Part shown: piece by piece, positions 1,016 to 14,913 of the stretch
Numbering within the stretch: position 1 is the stretch's first letter
Layout: the number at the start of each line of letters is the position of its first letter
DNA from: a virus
Length of the DNA stretch: 15,232 nt
UHGV virus genome: UHGV-1764584
Direction: 5' to 3' (one strand)
Position numbers and translations under genes: made by a program
The notes under the pieces: generated by a model
Told to the model about the DNA's origin: nothing
The model's database searches: none
Seen by the model: the letters and a program-made list of their open reading frames with translations, nothing else

Positions 1016-1030
1016 TGTCGAGGCATCCTT

Positions 1031-1060
1031 ATACATTTATATAAATATATAATTCTATAT
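1031..1060. repeat. AT-rich box (TTTATATAAATATATAATTCTATATA), member of a dispersed repeat family
   Basis: Shares the TATATAAAT and TATAATT(A/C)TATA cores with boxes at 2248-2280, 6001-6030, 6076-6103, 6781-6812 and 11722-11752. Sits in the promoter position of the 734-1015 operon. Confidence 0.5.
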
Positions 1061-1061
1061 A

Positions 1062-1081
1062 CGGCGGGAGACGTCCCGCCG
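1062..1081 (-). terminator. GC-rich hairpin downstream of the DUF3560-like gene (possible terminator)
   Basis: Perfect 8-bp stem CGGCGGGA/TCCCGCCG with a 4-nt loop, 12 nt past the stop at 1093. The following tract is AU-rich rather than a clean U-run. Confidence 0.35.
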
Positions 1082-1092
1082 TAGGCTTACTG

Positions 1093-2160
1093 TCAGGCTT
1101 TCAATAGCGATTCTTTTAGATATCGGGCATCAGCCAGGGCGTTTGGAGTAATCTTGCGAACCCATGCATTACGGGTTGGACTCCACTTAAAGGCGCGTGA
1201 TTTAAGCAGCGAACGAATGTTTGCCTCTGGTTTGCCAGGGAAATAAAACAGGATGCGGTTATCCTCTGGATCTATCTCCATAGAAAAGCCGTCGTATTCT
1301 TCGCGCTGTGCTCCTGTTACAGACTTGACCGATTCAAGCTCCTTAATACGGCTCTGTAGTCGTTTGATTTCGGCGTTATTGTTGCTCAGTGCGTATGAAG
1401 GGAATCCGATGCGCCCACAGAAATCTCCGGCCAGTAACTCTTTGGCTTCGCTTTCTGTAAACCTGAGATCGATTAATGCAGAAAGCTGCTGTAATTGGTC
1501 TTTTTTGTATTTGCGAATGGCCTTATTTGCGGCCTTCATTTTGACGTGTGACTTCATGCAGCCTTGCAGCTTACGAAGCAACTTAAATAGCGCATCAGGA
1601 TCATCAGACGAAATTCCATTACGACCAACACCTGCGGCTTTGCTCTCGTAGTGTGATGCTTTACTTTCGCATTCAACAAACGCTTTTCTTAATAACGCAT
1701 CAGCTTTAGACAAACGGCGGCGATGGCCTTTCGCGCTATAATGGTCAACTAAAATCGGCTGGCCTAACGGGATCACATCCAACAGGTCATGCGCTCGCTT
1801 ATGCGCTACCGCACCTTCTTTTCTGGCTTTTTCTGCACGAGCAATATATCGGGCAAGACGCGCGTTCTGGCGTTCCTGATAGGTGTTTACGTAATCATCT
1901 CCGCGCTGCTGCTGTTCAAGCCATGCTTTGCGCAGATCTTCTGTTACGTCCACCAGCTCCGCAGGGATACAACCAGTTTGGGCTTCATAAGAGTAACCAT
2001 CCTCATAGATGCGCCCATCGTCTTCAACAAAGAAAAAGGTTTCGTGCTCATCGCTTTTGACCATACGACCATTAACATGGCGTAATAGGTAGCCAGTATC
2101 AGTGCTTAACAGGCTGTTAGGGTTGTTGATCCAGTCAGAAATAATTTCTTGTTTATTCAT
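1093..2160 (-). CDS. 355-aa protein, DUF3560-like (family recalled from memory), function unknown
   Basis: Long intact ORF with GGAG 8 nt upstream of the ATG. C-terminal motif FYFPGKPEANIRSLLKSRAFKWSPTRNAWVR resembles DUF3560 proteins. Highly charged K/R/E-rich helical middle region. Confidence 0.65.
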   Translation of the reverse strand: MNKQEIISDWINNPNSLLSTDTGYLLRHVNGRMVKSDEHETFFFVEDDGRIYEDGYSYEAQTGCIPAELVDVTEDLRKAWLEQQQRGDDYVNTYQERQNARLARYIARAEKARKEGAVAHKRAHDLLDVIPLGQPILVDHYSAKGHRRRLSKADALLRKAFVECESKASHYESKAAGVGRNGISSDDPDALFKLLRKLQGCMKSHVKMKAANKAIRKYKKDQLQQLSALIDLRFTESEAKELLAGDFCGRIGFPSYALSNNNAEIKRLQSRIKELESVKSVTGAQREEYDGFSMEIDPEDNRILFYFPGKPEANIRSLLKSRAFKWSPTRNAWVRKITPNALADARYLKESLLKA

Positions 2161-2166
2161 CAGATT

Positions 2167-2280
2167 TCTCCGGTTTAACCAGGGCGGGTATCGCTCGGTT
2201 TCGGGTATAACCTTAGGAAATTTTTTCCCACCTGTAAAGCACTTTTTATATAAATCTATAATTATATATTTATAGATTTT
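2167..2280 (-). promoter_or_regulatory. Copy A of a duplicated promoter/5' leader module (about 110 bp), includes RBS and AT-rich box
   Basis: Near-identical to 11643-11752 (1-2 mismatches over roughly 100 bp). In gene orientation it contains TTTACA, a 17-bp spacer, TAAGGT, and the GGAG RBS. Lies directly downstream of the Q-like gene. Confidence 0.6.
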
Positions 2281-4698: not shown

Positions 4699-4826
4699 AC
4701 CACAATATGTGGTATTAAAACCACATATTGTGAGTTTTTCAATGGGCGAAACAAAAAATAACCTTCTATTTGTGGTCCACCTCTCGTCTTACCATGTGAA
4801 AACCACTAAATGTGGTAATGTATAAA
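4699..4826. promoter_or_regulatory. Divergent promoter/operator region between the cro-like and cI-like genes
   Basis: Operator-like sites: O1 4699-4713 (ACCACA-ATA-TGTGGT, perfect), O2 4720-4734 (ACCACA-TAT-TGTGAG), O4 4802-4816 (ACCACT-AAA-TGTGGT). Leftward promoter TTGAAA (rc of 4737-4742), 17 bp, TTTAAT (rc of 4714-4719), with O2 in the spacer. Rightward candidate -10 TATAAA at 4821-4826. Confidence 0.55.
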
Positions 4827-4853: not shown

Positions 4854-5510
4854 ATGAAAAGCAACGACGAGAACATCAAGAAAGAAATAGGTCTGCGCAT
4901 TCAGACTCTACGGAAACAATCCGGCATGACTGCCGGAGATCTCCAGCAAGTCACTGGAATAGGCTTAAGCACCTTGCAGAACTATGAGGCCGGATTAAGA
5001 CAACCATCTATACCTGCCATCAAGAAAATCGCGCACGCCCTGAAAGCATCAGCGCCTTATATCGCGTGCTTAACAGATAACCCGTTCCCACCCCAGAATA
5101 CTAACGCTCCTGTTATTCCTGGGCTTGTAGCTATAAAAAATGACATAGCATCGCACGCCGGAGAAAAGCCAGTGCTGGCGATAGAACAGGAGATTCTACG
5201 AAGCAAGAACATCAACCCATCGTCTCTGTCAGTTCTCCAGAGCAACGATGAGTTAATGTCACCAACAATATCCCCTGGCTCCCAAGTCCTGATTAATACA
5301 GACGATACAGAGATTCATGAGGGGATCTATGCCCTTGAAGACAGAAATGGCCTGGTTGTTTTGAGGCACTGTAGAGTCATACCGGGTGACAATGCTGTTA
5401 TGCTGTCAACCGAAAGGGATGCTGAAATGAACACTAAGCATCTGAATAACGAGGAATTTAAGCGTTATAAAGTTCTTGGCCGCGTAGTTAGTGTTGTCAA
5501 CTGGTTATGA
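4854..5510 (+). CDS. cI-like repressor (XRE-type HTH plus LexA/S24-like C-terminal domain)
   Basis: N-terminal HTH (IGLRIQTLRKQSGMTAGDLQQVTGIGLSTLQNYEAG). C-terminal domain shows the S24-like pattern (GIYALEDRNGLVVLR...VLGRVVSV). Confidence 0.8.
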   Translation: MKSNDENIKKEIGLRIQTLRKQSGMTAGDLQQVTGIGLSTLQNYEAGLRQPSIPAIKKIAHALKASAPYIACLTDNPFPPQNTNAPVIPGLVAIKNDIASHAGEKPVLAIEQEILRSKNINPSSLSVLQSNDELMSPTISPGSQVLINTDDTEIHEGIYALEDRNGLVVLRHCRVIPGDNAVMLSTERDAEMNTKHLNNEEFKRYKVLGRVVSVVNWL

Positions 5511-5533: not shown

Positions 5534-5551
5534 CATTTCTACGCTCAAAAA

Positions 5552-5591
5552 AACCACATTTTGTGGTTTTGACAACATGTAAAAGTATAAA
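5552..5591 (+). promoter_or_regulatory. Operator O5 plus promoter elements upstream of gene 5603-5977
   Basis: O5 at 5552-5568 is a perfect 7-bp-arm palindrome AACCACA-TTT-TGTGGTT. TTGACA at 5569-5574 and TATAAA at 5586-5591 follow. Exact promoter geometry unresolved. Confidence 0.5.
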
Positions 5592-5980: not shown

Positions 5981-6000
5981 CAAGCGGGCTAACGCCCGCT
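5981..6000 (+). terminator. Hairpin terminator candidate after gene 5603-5977
   Basis: AAGCGGGC-TAAC-GCCCGCTT, an 8-bp stem 4 nt past the stop, followed by an AU-rich tract. Confidence 0.45.
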
Positions 6001-6103
6001 TATATGATTATAGATTTATATAATTATATAAAACGCTTTTCATCCGCCAAAAAGTTGGTTATGCTTACCTCGTTCTATAAATATAGATTTATAGAATTAT
6101 ATA
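6001..6103. repeat. Two AT-rich boxes upstream of parA (candidate par operator/centromere-like repeats)
   Basis: TATAGATTTATA at 6008-6019 and 6082-6093, each followed by (T)AATTATATAA. The same core recurs at 6798-6809. Confidence 0.5.
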
Positions 6104-6127
6104 ACCAAACACATGGAGTCTCGACAA

Positions 6128-6781
6128 ATGACTATCTCTGTAGGTATTTTCAACGGAAAAGGCGGCGTAACCAAATCAACAATTGCCCGTGCTTTAGCAG
6201 TTGCTTATGCAAAGGCTGGCTGGAATGTATGCCTGATCGATATGGATGTGCTTAACGGAACGGTAACGCGTTGGGTACAACGCAGAATGGCCAACAATAT
6301 CGAACCAGCAATCGCGGCGCAGCCGTGCGGCACACCATCACAAGTCCAGAAAATCATCGAATCAGAAGTATACGACCTGGTTATCGTCGATGGCGGTGCC
6401 TACGCATCTGAATCAGTACCGAAGCTCTCTGAATTTCTGGATATGGTTATTTTGCCAACCAGATTCTCTACCGATGACCTGGAAACCACCGTTAACACAG
6501 CTCACGGCATCGTTAAAAAGGGTGTACCAATCAAGAAAATTTGCATGGTGTTTTCCGGCGCGGCTGAAAACGAAGCTGACTATATTGAAGCCCAAGAGTA
6601 CCTGGCTAATACGCCATACTTTGTTGTCGATAAGTACATTCCCCACAAGCCAGCTCTGAGCAAAGCTCAGGATAAGGGCTTAAGCCTCATTGAGTGCTCA
6701 TACGTTGCGCCACGCAAAAAGGCAGACGACGTTATTCAGGGGATTATCAACCAGCTTGAGGCTCTGACTACTGCCGCGTAA
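6128..6781 (+). CDS. parA: ParA-family partition ATPase (small ParF-type)
   Basis: Deviant Walker A GKGGVTKST, Walker A' LIDMD, and VIVDGGAYAS hydrophobic motif. Start chosen at ATG 6128 (GGAG at 6115-6118, 9-nt spacing); the ORF track's 6113 start is 5 codons longer. Confidence 0.8.
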   Translation: MTISVGIFNGKGGVTKSTIARALAVAYAKAGWNVCLIDMDVLNGTVTRWVQRRMANNIEPAIAAQPCGTPSQVQKIIESEVYDLVIVDGGAYASESVPKLSEFLDMVILPTRFSTDDLETTVNTAHGIVKKGVPIKKICMVFSGAAENEADYIEAQEYLANTPYFVVDKYIPHKPALSKAQDKGLSLIECSYVAPRKKADDVIQGIINQLEALTTAA

Positions 6782-6812
6782 TATATAATTATAGTTTTAT
6801 AGATTTATATAA
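6781..6812. repeat. AT-rich box between parA and the parG-like gene
   Basis: ATATATAATTATAGTTTTATAGATTTATATAA, carrying the same TATAGATTTATATAA core as 6008-6022. Confidence 0.5.
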
Positions 6813-6824
6813 GAGGGGATACAC

Positions 6825-7073
6825 ATGGCCGCACCATCAAAACCACCAAAGAAGAACAGCAAAGGCGTACCGCCATCGATCGAACAACCGCAGGTTTTCG
6901 ACCCGACTGAAACGCCAACCAGAACCAAATCAGGTGGGGCACAAATGGCGTTTAACGTCGACCCTGAATTTAAACGCGAGTACAAAACGTTCGCCAGCTC
7001 AATGGATATGTCATTGAAAGAAGTGCTGACAAAATCTTTTGAGTTACTCAAGGCTCAATACAACCAGAAGTAA
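6825..7073 (+). CDS. ParG-like ribbon-helix-helix partition/centromere-binding protein (82 aa)
   Basis: Directly downstream of parA with an AAGAGGGG RBS. Basic, Pro-rich, likely disordered N-terminal tail, then MAFNVDPEFKREYKTFASSMDMSLKEVLTKSFELLKAQ, a strand-helix-helix pattern comparable to TP228 ParG. Confidence 0.55.
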   Translation: MAAPSKPPKKNSKGVPPSIEQPQVFDPTETPTRTKSGGAQMAFNVDPEFKREYKTFASSMDMSLKEVLTKSFELLKAQYNQK

Positions 7074-7135
7074 GAGAAGGTGACGGCCTCCAGCGCCAAC
7101 TGTTGGCCGTCGCGACACAACAAGGGGAATTTGTT

Positions 7136-7285
7136 ATGTCCGAGCAACAATATACACGGTTACTGAAAACTCGTCTAACCGACCTCAAACGGCTGCAAGC
7201 TGGTCGCTTATTTGCCCTGCTATCCACCAGGCCAGAATGGGTACGTGAAGCAGTTCTGAAAGGCTTAATGCGCTCCAGCGTTTAA
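7136..7285 (+). CDS. Small hypothetical ORF (49 aa)
   Basis: ATG with a GGGGAA RBS, basic helical peptide. No homology recognised; could be non-coding. Confidence 0.25.
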   Translation: MSEQQYTRLLKTRLTDLKRLQAGRLFALLSTRPEWVREAVLKGLMRSSV

Positions 7286-7294
7286 ATTCAACCA

Positions 7295-7318
7295 TAAAAA
7301 AGGCCCCCGAAGGGGCCT
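7295..7318 (-). terminator. Rho-independent terminator oriented for minus-strand transcription
   Basis: Stem AGGCCCC/GGGGCCT (7301-7307 with 7312-7318) and loop CGAA. The A-run at 7295-7300 gives a U-run after the hairpin on the minus-strand RNA. Confidence 0.55.
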
Positions 7319-7323
7319 AATCG

Positions 7324-7446
7324 CTACTTGCTGCTAATGTTTATCGTCACATTCAGAGCGTTATCAGTAATCTTCCAACCCTCCCCATGTGGCGTAAACA
7401 AAGCTCCAGTAACAACGATAAAAATACACATACAGTATTTTTTCAT
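7324..7446 (-). CDS. Candidate 40-aa hydrophobic peptide (MKKYCMCIFIVVTGALFTPHGEGWKITDNALNVTINISSK)
   Basis: ATG at 7446 with AAGGG 7 nt upstream; the SD sits in a GGCC...GGCC hairpin. N-terminal hydrophobic segment. Ends just before the terminator at 7295-7318. The ORF track's 60-aa version begins at a non-ATG codon upstream. Confidence 0.35.
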   Translation of the reverse strand: MKKYCMCIFIVVTGALFTPHGEGWKITDNALNVTINISSK

Positions 7447-7677
7447 TGTATGGCCCTTACAGGCCGTTTCACGACATCCCCACCGACGAAAACAACGCGA
7501 GAGCAAGCACGGCTGCTTGTGCTTGCATGTACGGCAACAGGAAATCCTCCCCTAAAGTCGGTGCCCGGGTGCGAATCGGCGGGAAGGTCCACAGGTATTT
7601 TACGATTATTTTAAGATTAGTAATAGGAAAGAAATTAAACGAAAAAAACAGTTTATTTTCACAAAATCAGTAACCTA

Positions 7678-7870: not shown

Positions 7871-8017
7871 GTTTCTGCCTACCAATAAACCCACGCTATG
7901 TGGTTGTCTCTGTTAAAATCCCGCCGTATTGACATGAATGCGCCATTGGTGGACACTTTCCGAGCCGTAGCAAAATCTACGGTCGGGATTGGAACCCCGT
8001 AGACACAATGGCGCATA

Positions 8018-8040
8018 CCGCGTTAGCGGTTTTTTTATGC
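8018..8040 (+). terminator. Second short terminator-like hairpin in the antirepressor leader
   Basis: ACCGC-GTTA-GCGGT followed by T7. A GATTGGAACC 10-mer is repeated at 7988-7997 and 8150-8159. Confidence 0.3.
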
Positions 8041-8202
8041 GTAAAGCACTGCTACACCCAAATTATGGTGGGGCGTGCGGGGGAGTCGTAAGACTCGCCG
8101 GTTCGTCATTGTGTCCGGTAGTTCCAACCCTGCACGTCTCACCACCCAATGATTGGAACCTGACGGTGGTGAGTATCCTTAACCTTTAAGGGAATCATCA
8201 CA

Positions 8203-8394
8203 ATGACAAACCTACCCCATGACTATTACGTCAACCTCGTAAAGATCCTTCTCAAGAAAGCCTCATACGCCGATAAATTACGCCTGGCTGAAATCATCGA
8301 GCGCGAAGCTATGCGCATCGCCAGCAACGATAACGCTGTTTCTGACGCAAAAATCTCCCTCGTAACCAAAGTTGTTATGGGAGGTGCAAAATGA
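8203..8394 (+). CDS. Small protein (63 aa) translationally coupled to the antirepressor gene
   Basis: AAGGGAA RBS; its stop overlaps the antirepressor ATG (ATGA at 8391). Occupies the position that icd has in P1 immI. No sequence family recognised. Confidence 0.5.
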   Translation: MTNLPHDYYVNLVKILLKKASYADKLRLAEIIEREAMRIASNDNAVSDAKISLVTKVVMGGAK

Positions 8395-9542
8395 AAACGC
8401 TTCCGACCGTTAACACCCTACAGCCTATCCTGCATAATCAGATTCCAGTAATCACAACTGAGCTACTCGCCCGCCTTTATGGAACAGAAGCAATCCGTAT
8501 ACAGCAAAATCACCATGAAAATAAAACTCGGTTCATTGAGGGGAAGCACTTCTTTAAAGCTGTTGGTGATGAACTCAAAAATTTGCGACTAGTTTTAAAC
8601 GAGTCACAAAATGAGGTGCAAATTTCCCCCAAAACTCGCTCTCTCATCCTCTGGACAGAACGCGGGGCTGCACGTCACGCCAAAATGCTTGAAACTAACC
8701 AAGCGTGGGATGTGTTCGAACGGCTGGAAGACTGCTATTTCAACCAGAACGCGCAAACGGCCGCGACCGTAACCGTCTCACCAAACAATGCTCGTGAGGT
8801 TGTCGATACGCTCAACGCCAAACCGATGTTTTACATTAAAGTGTGCAACAACGAGCCACTCACAACCTCAGCCGATGTTGCCCAGGCATTCAGCACCACA
8901 AACAATTCCATCGTTATGGCCATCGATGCGTTACGCATTCCTCGCACAGCTGCGGCGCGTCATTTCTTTAAAGAGCAACGACCGTTGGAAGGAAGCGACC
9001 GCGAAATAACAATCTATCGCATGACAAAAGACGGATTTACCTTGCTCATGGAAAGTATCGACGGTCCAGGCGTGAAGGATATCAAGCTGGCCTACATTGA
9101 AGCCTTTAACGCTATCAGCAGCGTGTTAAAAACACAGTACGAGCGCGATCTGGCTAAACGACTGTACCAGGAAAAAACGATTATCCGCGCGGCAACAGAG
9201 CATAATCGGCTATTAACGGAACCGAACTACAGGAAGGAACTAATCAAGGAGTTTGACAAGGCAACAGGGAAAACCAAAGCGGCGCTAAGTCTGCCAGCAA
9301 TGACTCAGGAAAATGTGATATCAGCCTTACTTCTTGATCTGCTCAGAAACGCCAGAGCACTTATCAGCTTTGACGAAAACCTGAATCCTCAGCTCAAGCT
9401 ACTACCACCGACAGGCAAAGTAGTCGACCAGGCTGATCACAACAGCATACTCAGCGTACTGGATGCAAACCTGCCAGCCAGGACACTACAGGATCTGATA
9501 AAAACATGTGCTGATAAGCTGGCACAGAAAAGCAGACCATAA
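8391..9542 (+). CDS. Phage antirepressor (N-terminal ORF6N domain plus Rha/AntA-like domain)
   Basis: N-terminal IPVITTELLARLYGTEAIRIQQNHHENKTRFIEGKHFFK...LILWTERGAARHAKMLETNQAWDVFERLEDCYF is a classic ORF6N pattern. Middle PLTTSADVAQAFSTTNNSIVMAIDAL is Rha/AntA-like. Confidence 0.8.
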   Translation: MKTLPTVNTLQPILHNQIPVITTELLARLYGTEAIRIQQNHHENKTRFIEGKHFFKAVGDELKNLRLVLNESQNEVQISPKTRSLILWTERGAARHAKMLETNQAWDVFERLEDCYFNQNAQTAATVTVSPNNAREVVDTLNAKPMFYIKVCNNEPLTTSADVAQAFSTTNNSIVMAIDALRIPRTAAARHFFKEQRPLEGSDREITIYRMTKDGFTLLMESIDGPGVKDIKLAYIEAFNAISSVLKTQYERDLAKRLYQEKTIIRAATEHNRLLTEPNYRKELIKEFDKATGKTKAALSLPAMTQENVISALLLDLLRNARALISFDENLNPQLKLLPPTGKVVDQADHNSILSVLDANLPARTLQDLIKTCADKLAQKSRP

Positions 9543-10351: not shown

Positions 10352-10624
10352 TCATTTGATCCCTTGTTCCAATTCTGCCGACACTTTAACCTTTTCCCAT
10401 ACAAGGGTTTGCAGCCTTAACAGAATCGCATCTTTATCAAGGTGTGAAAGATCCTTAACCATATCGTCAAACGACAGAACGCGAATGGCCATCTCAATGA
10501 CCCTCGGCGGCTCCCCCTTCTCATATCGCTTATATGTAGCCAACGATATCCCAAACTCTTCGGCTGCTCGCTCCTGCGTCCAGTTCATCCCACGACGCCA
10601 TAATTTCAATTCGTAACCCGTCAT
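10352..10624 (-). CDS. XRE-family HTH transcriptional regulator (90 aa)
   Basis: MTGYELKLWRRGMNWTQERAAEEFGISLATYKRYEKGE is a canonical XRE HTH. Divergent from gene 10726-11151. Confidence 0.7.
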   Translation of the reverse strand: MTGYELKLWRRGMNWTQERAAEEFGISLATYKRYEKGEPPRVIEMAIRVLSFDDMVKDLSHLDKDAILLRLQTLVWEKVKVSAELEQGIK

Positions 10625-10725: not shown

Positions 10726-11151
10726 ATGAGTTCATCTGCTTTTGTCACCGTGGTCACTGGTGTAAGTGTTTTTGTTCTAGGCCAACTCATCGTCAAAGGA
10801 GCTATTGAGCCTTACATTTCATTCAGGGAACAACTAGGGAAAATATCCAATCTGTTATTATGTAACCAAGCAAAAATAGTGAATCCTGGCTCGAACTTAA
10901 AGCCAGAAATCATTCATGATCTAAAAGATTCCGCAGCACAGTTAATGGCGAAATATTCCACTTTACCTTTCTATATCAAAAAGTTACATATCGGCTTTCG
11001 TCTTGTTCCATCAGCCACCGAGATTCTTGGGGCAGCTCAAAATTTGAACTATATAGCGTCAATACATGAAGGTAAGACTGGGGAGAATCCATCTAAGCAT
11101 CTCGAAGAGATTGGCCATATGCTCAAAATACCAACTACCTATTCAAGCTAA
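10726..11151 (+). CDS. Hypothetical membrane-anchored protein (141 aa) in an AT-rich segment
   Basis: AGGT RBS; N-terminal hydrophobic helix (AFVTVVTGVSVFVLGQLIV) followed by a soluble domain. Visibly lower GC than its flanks. No family recognised. Confidence 0.5.
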   Translation: MSSSAFVTVVTGVSVFVLGQLIVKGAIEPYISFREQLGKISNLLLCNQAKIVNPGSNLKPEIIHDLKDSAAQLMAKYSTLPFYIKKLHIGFRLVPSATEILGAAQNLNYIASIHEGKTGENPSKHLEEIGHMLKIPTTYSS

Positions 11152-11219: not shown

Positions 11220-11246
11220 CGCAAAGTGTCAAAATGACACTTTGCG
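11220..11246. promoter_or_regulatory. Perfect 12-bp-arm palindrome (CGCAAAGTGTCA-AAA-TGACACTTTGCG) between convergent genes
   Basis: Seen directly. Fifteen nucleotides of it (TCAAAATGACACTTT) recur exactly at 2316-2330 at the 3' end of the Q-like gene. Could be a terminator hairpin or a dimer operator. Confidence 0.45.
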
Positions 11247-11254
11247 CATTGTGT

Positions 11255-11635
11255 TTACTTAACGAGGAATAAAAATGGTTTATTGTTCGGCGGTGTAATC
11301 GGGGCTGGCTCGCTTTTGCTCATGCGATCAGTGTACCAGGCCAACTCCTTGTCAAAGTAAGCCTGATTAAAATAGGCCATGAATGTAGTTTCAAATCCAT
11401 AACGACCGCTAATACGCAGCATCTGATTGCCGTTCTCTGTTTCCAGATATACCTGGGCACGTTCCTGATTCTCCTTCAGCCAGGTTAAAGCCTCATCGCA
11501 TGAGGACACACGATACTCATCATCGTAGCAGTCATCGATGCGGCTTGAGGAAGAACGGCAAATCACGCCAACAGAACCAGCCAGGATAGTTTGAATTTTA
11601 AGGAAAGCGTTTTTGCGGATTTTAATCATGCTCAT
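11255..11635 (-). CDS. Hypothetical 126-aa protein with signal-peptide-like N-terminus
   Basis: Intact ORF with GGAG 8 nt upstream. N-terminal basic then hydrophobic stretch (KIRKNAFLKIQTILAGSVGVIC), three Cys in the following 25 residues. Driven by copy B of the duplicated leader module. Confidence 0.55.
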   Translation of the reverse strand: MSMIKIRKNAFLKIQTILAGSVGVICRSSSSRIDDCYDDEYRVSSCDEALTWLKENQERAQVYLETENGNQMLRISGRYGFETTFMAYFNQAYFDKELAWYTDRMSKSEPAPITPPNNKPFLFLVK

Positions 11636-11642
11636 CGGGTTA

Positions 11643-11752
11643 TCTCCGGTTTAACCAGGGCGGGTATCGCTCGGTTTCGGGTATAACCTTAGGAATTTTT
11701 TTCCCACCTGTAAAGCACTTTTTATATAAATATATAATTATATAATTCTATG
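11643..11752 (-). promoter_or_regulatory. Copy B of the duplicated promoter/5' leader module
   Basis: Near-identical to 2167-2280, including RBS, TTTACA-17 bp-TAAGGT and the AT-rich box. Confidence 0.6.
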
Positions 11753-11783
11753 AGCACAAAAAAGCCCCTTTGCAACAGGGGCT
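11753..11783 (-). terminator. Rho-independent terminator after the antitoxin gene
   Basis: Stem AAGCCCCT/AGGGGCTT (11761-11768 with 11776-11783), loop TTGCAAC. The A6 run at 11755-11760 gives a U-run on the minus-strand RNA. Confidence 0.6.
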
Positions 11784-11798
11784 TATCATTCGTTCTGA

Positions 11799-12688: not shown

Positions 12689-12979
12689 CTATTTTTGTGA
12701 CTTTACTCCTGGCATATGGACTTCCCAGCGACGAATCCCCATAGCTGCGCAAAAATCAGCCACATAATTCAATCCCGCCCATTCGCGGATACCACCACGG
12801 GCTTTTTCAATGAAAACGGCAATCCCTTTTTTATTGAGAGCAAAAAGCCGCCAGCTTTTTGTCACTTCGTCCTGGGTAGCCACAACACAAGTGAAAGCTC
12901 CCATGCGATACAGGTCCAAGAACTCTTTGCGTGTTTTGCGTACAAGTTCCATAACAAACCTCATATTTGCATGTTTCAA
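12689..12979 (-). CDS. Hypothetical 96-aa protein
   Basis: Intact ORF, ATGA-coupled to the upstream gene 12976-13275. Not recognised. Confidence 0.45.
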   Translation of the reverse strand: MKHANMRFVMELVRKTRKEFLDLYRMGAFTCVVATQDEVTKSWRLFALNKKGIAVFIEKARGGIREWAGLNYVADFCAAMGIRRWEVHMPGVKSQK

Positions 12980-13275
12980 ACATCTGTTTTGTTATCAATG
13001 AAGATTAACCCTAACCCAGCGAAGTAACACAGCAGCGCCCAGGCTGCATACGGAATGCTGGATCTGGATGTGGACTCCTTTAACATCTGCCAGTTGCGAA
13101 CATTGCGACTATCTTTTAAGCCAAGTTTTTTGGCCAACTGCGAGCCGCTCATTCCGGTCAGGCCAATGACTGCCCGAACTTCTCCACATGTAGGAGATTC
13201 CCATTCATCCGCTTTTTTTAAACAAGCCGGATTCAACATTTTTAAAACAGTATCTTTATCCATAACCATCTCCAT
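12976..13275 (-). CDS. Small HTH-containing protein with C-terminal hydrophobic segment (99 aa)
   Basis: HTH-like GLTGMSGSQLAKKLGLKDSRNVRNWQ; C-terminal IPYAAWALLCYFAGLGLIF looks like a membrane anchor. Confidence 0.45.
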   Translation of the reverse strand: MEMVMDKDTVLKMLNPACLKKADEWESPTCGEVRAVIGLTGMSGSQLAKKLGLKDSRNVRNWQMLKESTSRSSIPYAAWALLCYFAGLGLIFIDNKTDV

Positions 13276-13509
13276 TTATTATATCTACGATGGTAGGAAA
13301 TCTTTTCCTATGTGGCAATAGAAATTTACTACATTGCGTATAAGACAAGTTTTCTATGTCTAATAGGAAATGATGTTTCTTACGTTTTATCGCGTTCTGA
13401 TGGCTACTGTGTGCGTATTTATCGACGTTTATTGATAAGGCTCGCCCCTTCCTCCTGCAAAGCCCGGCCGTAGGCCTTATTTCGGCCTTATATAAATTGA
13501 TTTTGTATA

Positions 13510-14765: not shown

Positions 14766-14882
14766 TTGCGTCCACGGAAAACCAACGTATAATGGGAGTT
14801 GTCGAGGCGCCCATGGTTAGTTGTTGGTTTTCCTTTCCGTGGATGTCGCAAGAAGCCCGCAGATTTATCTGCGGGCTTTTTG
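14766..14882 (+). ncRNA. CopA-like antisense RNA with its promoter, opposite the repA leader
   Basis: -35 TTGCGT (14766-14771), 16 bp, -10 TATAAT (14788-14793). Terminator stem AAGCCCGCAGA/TCTGCGGGCTT (14853-14878) followed by TTTTTGTTT. The RNA would be about 83 nt, complementary to the region 45-130 nt upstream of the repA start. Confidence 0.55.
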
Positions 14883-14913
14883 TTTCCATATCTGGTCACT
14901 TTTCAACCAGACA

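Follow-up and report, generated by a model that had tools for sequence, protein, structure and literature searches.

The window analysed here, a 15,232-nucleotide (nt) stretch of the virus genome UHGV-1764584, contains at positions 11643-11752 (minus strand) a promoter and leader element, copy B, that directly precedes a gene for a 126-amino-acid (aa) protein (11255-11635, minus strand). Copy A of the same element (2167-2280, minus strand) lies before a DUF3560 gene, and copy C, outside the window, lies before an 89-aa gene. Sequence comparisons lead us to propose, with moderate confidence, that copies A, B, and C are repressor-gated promoter cassettes for entry genes, governed by an Aca-like helix-turn-helix (HTH) repressor, by a ParG-like protein acting at AT-rich arrays, and by a leader hairpin.

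In the proposed mechanism, each cassette would be a sigma-70 promoter with an AGGAAA-N3-TTTCCT operator placed in its 17-nt spacer. This palindrome would be read by the product of the HTH gene at 12976-13275, which is homologous to the Aca (autorepressor) domain of AcrIF24. On entry into a naive cell, where no repressor is yet present, expression of the 126-aa and DUF3560 genes and of the 89-aa operon would start together with that of the repressor gene; as the repressor accumulates, it would shut all four promoters, which would extend the logic of acr-aca operons to a dispersed regulon. Binding of the ParG-like protein to 8-base-pair (bp) arrays upstream of the -35 element would provide a second shut-off tied to plasmid establishment, and the conserved hairpin, located a few bases upstream of the invariant ribosome-binding region, would stabilise the mRNA or tune its translation. 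A fuller version of this proposal, in which both layers gate the dispersed entry genes and turn them off only after both proteins are in place, the hairpin is a new cis-regulatory RNA, and the 126-aa family (IRKNAxKKI...DDSxD) is a new anti-defence family, is rather doubtful as a whole.

The window is 99-100% identical to circular E. coli plasmids of ~48 kilobases (kb), such as NZ_CP023368.1 and CP099184.1, and also to the Yersinia phages vB_YpM_39, 41, and 44. The ~48-kb plasmids encode repA, a resolvase, higBA, and parA, and the same plasmids encode an S24 cI-like repressor, a C4-RNA/antirepressor immunity region, lysis genes, and a complete set of myovirus head and tail proteins. These elements are phage-plasmids of the myovirus type. 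The complete plasmid record NZ_CP023368.1 (locus L002) was the source for everything outside the window.

Cassette copies, operator, and candidate repressor

Positions 11643-11750 matched positions 2167-2274 as a 108-nt repeat with 96% identity and no gaps, far beyond chance, and the similarity stopped abruptly at both ends. A preliminary description of this DNA, made from the window alone, had correctly recognized copy B as the second repeat of a promoter and leader module. It had called the module duplicated; the repeat is real, and the element is in fact triplicated rather than duplicated, because the complete plasmid contains three occurrences of its 76-nt core, compared to 0.00 expected by chance, with the third copy outside the window. 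All three copies have the same orientation. The DUF3560 gene driven by copy A (1093-2160, minus strand) encodes 355 aa (Pfam DUF3560, E-value (E) 7.7e-31; phrog_6744), and the 89-aa gene preceded by copy C is located after an MT-A70 methyltransferase gene.

Copy B, which has all of its parts on the minus strand, begins with an array of four 8-bp AT-rich units (TTATAKAA/TATAnAnT; 11721-11752) placed immediately upstream of the -35 element, with AAAAGTGC (gene strand) at the junction. The putative -35 element TTTACA (11709-11714) is conserved in all copies and relatives. A 17-nt promoter spacer, filled by the operator palindrome GGGAAA-N-TTCCT (11691-11705; more loosely (G)GGAAA-N3/5-TTCCT), lies between it and the putative -10 element TAAGGT (11686-11691). 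About eight variable bases separate the -10 element from a leader hairpin (11653-11676; RNA AACCG-A-GCG-AUACC-CGC-CC-UGGUU), after which AAACCGGAGAUAACCCG leads to the AUG. The Shine-Dalgarno sequence GGAGA (11643-11647) stands 7 nt before the ATG at 11635, and AAACCGGAG-N5-CCGATGA at the ribosome-binding region is common to distant relatives. Copy A shows the corresponding parts, also on the minus strand: array 2246-2280, -35 element 2233-2238, operator 2215-2229, -10 element 2210-2215, hairpin 2177-2200, and Shine-Dalgarno sequence 2167-2171. The -10 element reads TATGGT in many E. coli relatives and in all Salmonella and Klebsiella relatives, and TAATAT, TACTAT, or TATTAT in more distant relatives, at equal spacing from TTTACA or TTGAC(G/A). 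An intrinsic terminator of the upstream higBA operon (11762-11784, minus strand) isolates copy B from read-through. Because copy B lies directly after this terminator and ends 7 nt before the ATG, it must supply both the promoter and the ribosome-binding site of the 126-aa gene, which agrees with the preliminary description of a module that drives this gene.

The AGGAAA-N3-TTTCCT palindrome fills the 17-nt spacer between the -35 and -10 elements in copies A, B, and C. Operator sites are found at 2215-2229, 11691-11705, and 13295-13309, with a fourth outside the window, all in promoter spacers and abutting the -10 element; on the complete plasmid they span positions 1435-19538, about 18 kb. The site at 13295-13309 belongs to the promoter of the small HTH gene (13290-13318, minus strand), in which TTGCCA (13318-13313) and TACCAT (13295-13290) enclose a 17-nt spacer with the perfect palindrome AGGAAAAGATTTCCT. 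This gene (12976-13275, minus strand) encodes 99 aa from its first ATG, or 95 aa from the start at ~13263 in the annotation of NZ_CP023368.1, and is the proposed Aca-like repressor of the cassettes. Its promoter carries the palindrome without the rest of the cassette. Since the cassette palindrome sits in the HTH gene's own promoter, the arrangement is typical of autorepression. An operator in the HTH gene promoter was also present in the Salmonella locus L003 (2421-2435) and in L115 (6863-6879), a Salmonella relative has three perfect palindrome sites at equivalent places, and in L033 the regulator gene is inside a cassette-driven operon.

An all-against-all comparison of small open reading frames from cassette-bearing loci yielded two families common to 8 lineages, which were the 126-aa family and the small HTH family. 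The HTH gene is directly upstream of the cassette in five loci (L030, L033, L034, L045, and L095) and directly downstream of it in L031. When the HTH-family profile was compared with AcrIF24, Aca1, Aca2, and Aca3, it matched the C-terminal HTH domain of AcrIF24 (E 1.5e-8). The acrIF23-acrIF24 promoter contains an inverted repeat to which the AcrIF24 HTH domain binds, and it is repressed by this domain (PMC9638941). According to a 2026 study, it is common for Aca proteins to govern several anti-defence operons in their neighbourhood, and some of these proteins additionally bind structures in 5' untranslated regions (PMC13551039).

The same spacer-palindrome design recurs with other, lineage-specific sequences in at least 9 further lineages, among L030-L034, L045, L095, L115, and L139-L141. 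The palindromes that occupy this promoter position elsewhere include TAGGCC-N5-GGCCTA, TAGGTC-N5-GACCTA, CGGACC-N3-GGTCCG, TACTGAC-N5-GTCAGTA, CGTAACC-N3-GGTTACG, TAAGCCT-N3-AGGCTTA, AATTAGCTAATT, and TTAGGGCAA-A-TTGCCCTAA, and the Pacificibacter pair L139/L140 has the common palindrome TTAGGG-N-CCCTAA. Two to three operator sites per genome were present in the fragments examined of L003, L030, L033, and L115. As judged from these sequences, the cassette fits an Aca-type autorepressed regulon, in which the HTH protein would bind the operators and repress the promoters. In the phage locus L045 (400-950), two tandem cassettes with the operator AATTAGCTAATT stand before unrelated 106-aa and 108-aa genes, and a gene of the regulator family lies just upstream.

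AT-rich arrays, partition genes, and leader hairpin

Eight arrays of four 8-bp units occur on the 48.8-kb plasmid, compared to 0.26 expected by chance, and all are intergenic. Three of them head the cassettes, two bracket the parA promoter (6000-6034 and 6073-6107, plus strand), one fills the gap between parA and an 82-aa gene (6781-6815, plus strand), and one precedes a winged-helix gene of 100 aa (array 1029-1063, minus strand; gene 734-1036). The eighth (18341-18378 of L002) precedes tRNA-Met (18510-18585) and the MT-A70 DNA methyltransferase gene (18894-19481); this orphan methylase may be part of an array-marked set of transcription units. The units keep a strict 8-bp register and have a conserved core. 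Array sites are present at five intergenic positions besides the par locus, at which the partition protein might act as a regulator of the omega or KorB type.

The parA gene (6113-6781, plus strand) encodes a 222-aa partition ATPase with matches to Pfam CbiA/ParA/MipZ; among the partition ATPases of the PDB, ParF comes closest (E 3e-4). The protein is a small Walker-type ParA that lacks an N-terminal DNA-binding domain, and its promoter is surrounded by arrays of short repeats; both features are those of type Ib partition systems. The 82-aa gene (6825-7073, plus strand) is parG-like and encodes the proposed binder of the AT-rich arrays. Its product has a K/P-rich disordered tail and a strand-helix-helix C-terminus, modelled as disordered at residues 1-40, extended at 41-46, and helical at 47-59 and 62-80. 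An hhalign comparison, with the ParG sequence verified against PDB 1P94, placed residues 40-72 in register with the ribbon-helix-helix of ParG at a non-significant score (E 0.05, probability 1%). A Foldseek search with the monomer model, disordered tail included, gave only noise and thus no proof of a ribbon-helix-helix fold. Directly after the parG-like gene in four lineages lies an open reading frame of ~50-60 aa (7103-7285, plus strand; MSEQQYTRLLKTRLTDLKRL...RPEWV...), which might be the third member of this operon.

The omega protein of pSM19035 and ParG of TP228 are ribbon-helix-helix centromere-binding proteins of type Ib partition systems, and omega arrays are also present at other promoters, which makes this partition protein a global regulator. 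The par locus of the window resembles the omega and ParG systems in its pairing of a small ParA with a small protein that has a predicted flexible basic tail and strand-helix-helix C-terminus, and in its arrays of short units, direct and inverted with a 7-8 bp period, around the parA promoter. It differs in its unit (TTATAKAA), in the lack of a significant sequence or fold match, and in the nature of the proposed extra targets, which are candidate entry or anti-defence genes instead of copy-number or toxin-antitoxin genes. Partition-protein sites scattered at promoters are likewise known from N15, where dispersed Sop centromere sites influence phage gene expression, and from the KorA/KorB regulon of IncP plasmids. 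These systems differ from the one described here in that they use type Ia ParB/SopB or KorB proteins with long palindromic sites rather than arrays of short units.

The idea that the cassette arrays are read by the partition protein draws mainly on a concerted change of units and par operator in another lineage, L115. In L028 and L115, which encode orthologous ParA and 82-aa proteins, the parA promoter carries other 8-bp units, CTTTCGTG and AAAGAWWT, respectively. In L115, AAAGAWWT units occur both at the parA promoter and before the cassette, with 9 matches in the locus compared to 0.28 expected. The predicted DNA-reading strand also differs among the three 82-aa orthologues (QMAFNV, LMNFNV, and PLNFKV). 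The region upstream of the L028 cassette was sought for CTTTCGTG arrays by two metagenome scans and one genome scan and was not found. From this sequence pattern and the analogy to omega on pSM19035, we give about an even chance to the idea that the ParG-like protein reads the arrays at the cassettes.

In the close family, the stems of the leader hairpin are invariant, with variation confined to the loop and no covariation. Addition of distant leaders from L028, L030, L033, L045, L072, L095, and L115 gave a set of 13 sequences, in which 91% of cells paired, four of the eight base pairs were changed on both sides, and the observed covariation was reached in none of 500 shuffles; controls with a slid register paired at ≤40%. 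The hairpin is unlikely to be an RNA mimic of the operator of the kind used by Aca2, because it is unlike the DNA operator and is common to lineages that have different operators. Instead, it would stabilise the mRNA or tune translation. Rfam 15 gave no match at cassette copies A or B with E up to 1, and a riboswitch or other known RNA element was rejected on this basis and because single-sequence folding gave z-scores of only -1.6. The leader was likewise rejected as a target of plasmid small RNAs, since it shares no complementarity of ≥7 nt with the C4-like, isrK, or ryfA RNAs.

The 126-aa protein and other cargo genes

The 126-aa protein (phrog_8090) is a predicted cytoplasmic alpha/beta protein and a candidate anti-defence or establishment factor. 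It had no match in Pfam or NCBIfam. Its close family is restricted to enterobacterial phage-plasmids, and a profile search of 1.8 billion representatives returned 39 clusters. Conservation within the family is highest in the N-terminal 35 residues, which bear the signature (T)IRKNAxKKI..L..A.G(I/V)I....S...DDSxD. An AlphaFold2 model had a mean predicted local distance difference test (pLDDT) score of 80.8 and a predicted template modelling score of 0.72; residues 2-29 formed a strand-helix-strand inside a globular alpha/beta domain (pLDDT 88-94), and only the C-terminal 17 residues were disordered.

The preliminary description had read this protein as secreted-type, with a signal-peptide-like N-terminus and three clustered cysteines, and had pointed out that secreted or periplasmic proteins of this kind are often entry-exclusion or anti-defence factors. 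In favour of a signal peptide with disulfide-forming cysteines, basic N-terminal residues are followed by ILAGSVGVIC (10 residues, mean Kyte-Doolittle 2.39) and then by polar RSSSSR, and three cysteines lie within 21 residues. However, the conservation of the N-terminus is the opposite of what is seen in signal peptides, and the structure prediction that had been suggested as a check placed this segment inside the fold. The hydrophobic stretch is ≤10 residues long and is interrupted in orthologues by D, N, S, or T, as in ILADSVGVIS and ILGTSVGVIS; the corresponding stretches of remote homologues are LLNSAIAII and ILNSAVGII. The cysteines, although present here, are replaced in orthologues (Cys26 by S, Cys36 by G or D, and Cys46 by S, G, T, or A), which leaves the entry-exclusion idea without support. 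Because the N-terminus is the most conserved part and lies inside the modelled fold, and because the cysteines are not conserved, the product is probably cytoplasmic as judged from alignments and model, and a secreted or periplasmic protein is very improbable.

A role for the 126-aa protein is suggested by the company that its family and cassette keep. Remote homologues adjoin ArdC-N or RadC genes, DNA methylases, and an AcrF8 gene, and others are found in other phage-plasmids near par genes and a resolvase. The remote homologues P0037, P0041, P0045, P0052, and P0058 end in N(V/I)(V/I)SLC(A/D/E)YR.R, and the family of the window ends in P.L(F/Y)LV (11255-11281) after a disordered linker; the C-terminal motif could be a short docking motif.

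In the close family (IMG/VR contigs and fetched relatives), the cassette was found only before the 126-aa, DUF3560, and 89-aa gene families. The cassette is ~83% identical between the E. coli and Salmonella types, compared to 67% and 69% DNA identity for the coding sequences of the 126-aa and DUF3560 proteins, respectively. Copies within one genome are ~95-96% identical and have lineage-specific variants in common, a pattern that indicates selection through a common trans-acting factor, gene conversion, or a combination of the two. The preliminary observation that the 126-aa and DUF3560 genes share a module was thus borne out and now extends to a third gene, and the co-occurrence analysis proposed at that time found genes and module paired in E. 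coli, Salmonella, and Klebsiella relatives even at 67-69% identity of the coding DNA. The further suggestion that the 126-aa and DUF3560 proteins act in one pathway did not follow, because the data give shared regulation only. On IncF plasmids, DUF3560 genes occur widely (about 1,000 plasmids; PMC6965323), and a gene with a DUF3560 domain is found there in a short region that also includes the intergenic stretch separating ssb from an S-adenosylmethionine-dependent methyltransferase gene (PMC11781037).

In other elements, the cargo behind the cassette type includes recognizable families. Two cassettes in L030 have the same operator; one drives a homologue of the 126-aa protein and the other a member of the AcrF8 family (E 8.6e-12). 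The protein encoded behind the cassette belongs to the Antirestriction family (PF03230, E 3.7e-32) in marine-bacterial contigs and is a RadC-like JAB protein (E 4.9e-42) in a metagenome-assembled genome. The earlier guess of an anti-defence function thereby gained indirect support, from the AcrF8, Antirestriction, and RadC cargo elsewhere and from an operator that matches the promoter of an Aca-like repressor, but none of the three cargo proteins of this plasmid matched a known anti-defence family. The three cargo genes are candidates for an anti-defence role by association.

Known systems, alternative explanations, and neighbouring features

The closest known kind of system is the Aca-controlled multi-operon anti-defence regulon, as described for Aca1, Aca2, Aca14, and the Acr-Aca fusion AcrIF24 (PMC13551039, PMC9638941). 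Shared features are a small dimer-type DNA-binding regulator, an inverted-repeat operator in the core promoter that is also present at the regulator's own promoter and at several promoters per element, small and fast-evolving cargo genes, and a structured 5' leader; the regulator itself is homologous to the AcrIF24 HTH. The cassettes differ from known Aca regulons in that the three cargo proteins have no match among known Acr or anti-defence families, in that the promoters are dispersed over ~18 kb of a phage-plasmid instead of being adjacent, in the leader hairpin that is independent of the operator, and in the additional upstream array shared with the partition operon.

A repeated promoter and stem-loop cassette before variable small cargo is also characteristic of the promoter-early-stem-loop (PeSL) cassettes of T4-type phages, which precede variable small genes in several copies per genome. 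PeSLs belong to another phage group, have a different sequence, and, to our knowledge, carry no repressor operator.

Several observations weigh against the proposal of repressor-gated entry cassettes. A strict sigma-70 promoter scan returned no site in the E. coli cassette copies, because their weak -10 element TAAGGT fits the consensus at only 3/6 positions. The assignment of the 12976-13275 HTH protein as the regulator draws on co-occurrence and homology, and its best match is to AcrIF24 and not to a numbered Aca family, for which the scores were weak (Aca3, E 0.006; Aca1, E 0.19; Aca2, E 0.84). A second candidate regulator is a 90-aa HTH protein (10352-10624, minus strand), encoded directly after the 126-aa gene in relatives and split off from it here by a 141-aa gene; this protein could be the regulator instead. 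The likeness of copies within a genome could reflect gene conversion and not selection. Searches of Pfam, NCBIfam, and the PDB linked none of the 126-aa, DUF3560, and 89-aa proteins to a known anti-defence family, and the 126-aa model had no significant structural neighbour. PDB sequence and profile searches with the 82-aa protein were empty or spurious, and neither its sequence nor its fold matched ParG or omega significantly. In L033 the cassette carries a TATATTTA array, and an unrelated par locus uses other repeats; because of this difference, the AT-rich arrays may have a par-independent role. Finally, the hairpin structure was drawn from the sequences used in its test, some members of the alignment had been found with a pattern fixed on the ribosome-binding region, and an inverted repeat acting at the DNA level would covary alike.

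The weak -10 element and the empty scan are also what would be expected of activator-dependent middle or late lytic promoters, with the palindrome as the activator site and the three units as lytic-cycle genes. The late promoters of phage P1, which contain an inverted repeat bound by Lpa, offer a precedent, and all three copies are oriented in the lytic direction, with copy C just before the packaging and structural genes. However, copy B lies in the plasmid-maintenance region and not in a lytic operon, some relatives have good hexamers that need no activator (TTGACG-17-TATATT and TTTACA-17-TAATAT), and the palindrome also occupies the promoter of the HTH gene itself, whose family is homologous to a repressing domain (PMC9638941). 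We therefore regard lytic activation as unlikely. The identity of ~95-96% within genomes compared to ~83% between lineages, together with the wide variation in cargo behind the cassette type, could alternatively mark the copies as recombination scars of a mobile regulatory cassette, similar to the PeSL cassettes, homogenized by gene conversion and subject to no shared trans-regulation. This explanation is quite improbable, since the palindrome occurs at the regulator promoter without the rest of the cassette, shifts in sequence by lineage while its position stays fixed, and the same three genes keep the cassette across lineages. Mobility of the cassette and regulation in trans are not mutually exclusive.

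For the arrays alone, a different explanation is that they are generic enhancers, similar to UP elements or curved DNA, or nucleation sites for H-NS or Fis, and that the link to par is coincidental or results from promoter duplication. The arrays cover about -38 to -70, the region in which UP elements act; in L030, L032, and L033, whose par locus is absent from the fragment or unrelated, the cassette likewise has AT-rich stretches before it; and the parA promoter and the cassette are alike at the junction of array and -35 element (AAAAcGCTTTtCA versus AAAgtGCTTTaCA), which suggests common descent. By contrast, generic enhancers would not account for a strict 8-bp register with a conserved unit core, and arrays placed between parA and the parG-like gene, or directly against ribosome-binding sites, make no sense as UP elements. 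Moreover, the L115 unit differs from that of the window and is nevertheless common to the parA promoter and the cassette, and a third unit is present at parA of L028. Generic arrays are accordingly possible but somewhat unlikely.

Aca-type repressors offer the best starting point for the discovery of new anti-defence genes. The cassette is recognizable by a palindrome that fills a 17-nt spacer, a two-tier hairpin, and AAACCGGAG-N5-CCGATGA, and across several proteobacterial groups it flags candidate genes in phages, plasmids, and phage-plasmids. In this common family of phage-plasmids of E. coli, Salmonella, and Klebsiella, it nominates as candidates the 126-aa and DUF3560 proteins and the 89-aa operon. 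If the partition protein does read the arrays, segregation would be tied to the control of entry genes, linking the "plasmid" and "phage" halves of these elements.

Some features of the surrounding DNA were noted along with the cassettes. The 141-aa gene (10726-11151, plus strand), whose product has an N-terminal transmembrane helix, and a two-way terminator hairpin (11220-11246) lie between the 126-aa gene and the 90-aa HTH gene. Because the flanking genes are adjacent in Salmonella and Klebsiella and because many E. coli plasmids match the window only from ~11209 onward, the 141-aa gene and its terminator are a variable insertion. A direct repeat, D3 (10773-10798/11332-11357), was judged a chance match, as its copies lie in genes on opposite strands. 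The name pSLy3 was dropped as a family name for these elements, since the pSLy3 group belongs to the SSU5 supergroup. Upstream of repA, a Thr_leader match (14770-14885, plus strand) scored 34.6 bits compared to a gathering score of 55; this sub-threshold match is probably due to chance, although it may mark a structured repA leader.

The S24 cI-like repressor gene (4854-5510) is flanked by two copies of the palindrome AAAACCACAwwTTGTGg (4717-4742 and 5550-5575), which are probably cI operators and are distinct from the cassette palindrome and the AT-rich arrays. The cI-like repressor was considered as the array binder and rejected, since its likely operators are these different palindromes and no arrays occur in the cI/early intergenic region. 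The segments 7951-8149 and 8203-9542 (both plus strand) contain Rfam matches to c4-a1b1 (38.8 bits, below the gathering score), isrK (67.7 bits), and the C4 antisense RNA (77.8 bits), and after these matches a 63-aa gene and a gene for a 383-aa Rha/ORF6N antirepressor. This C4/isrK/antirepressor region is an immunity module of the P1/P7 immI type. Just downstream of the par operon, the ryfA RNA family gave a full-length match (7296-7592, minus strand; 144.5 bits, E 9e-38).

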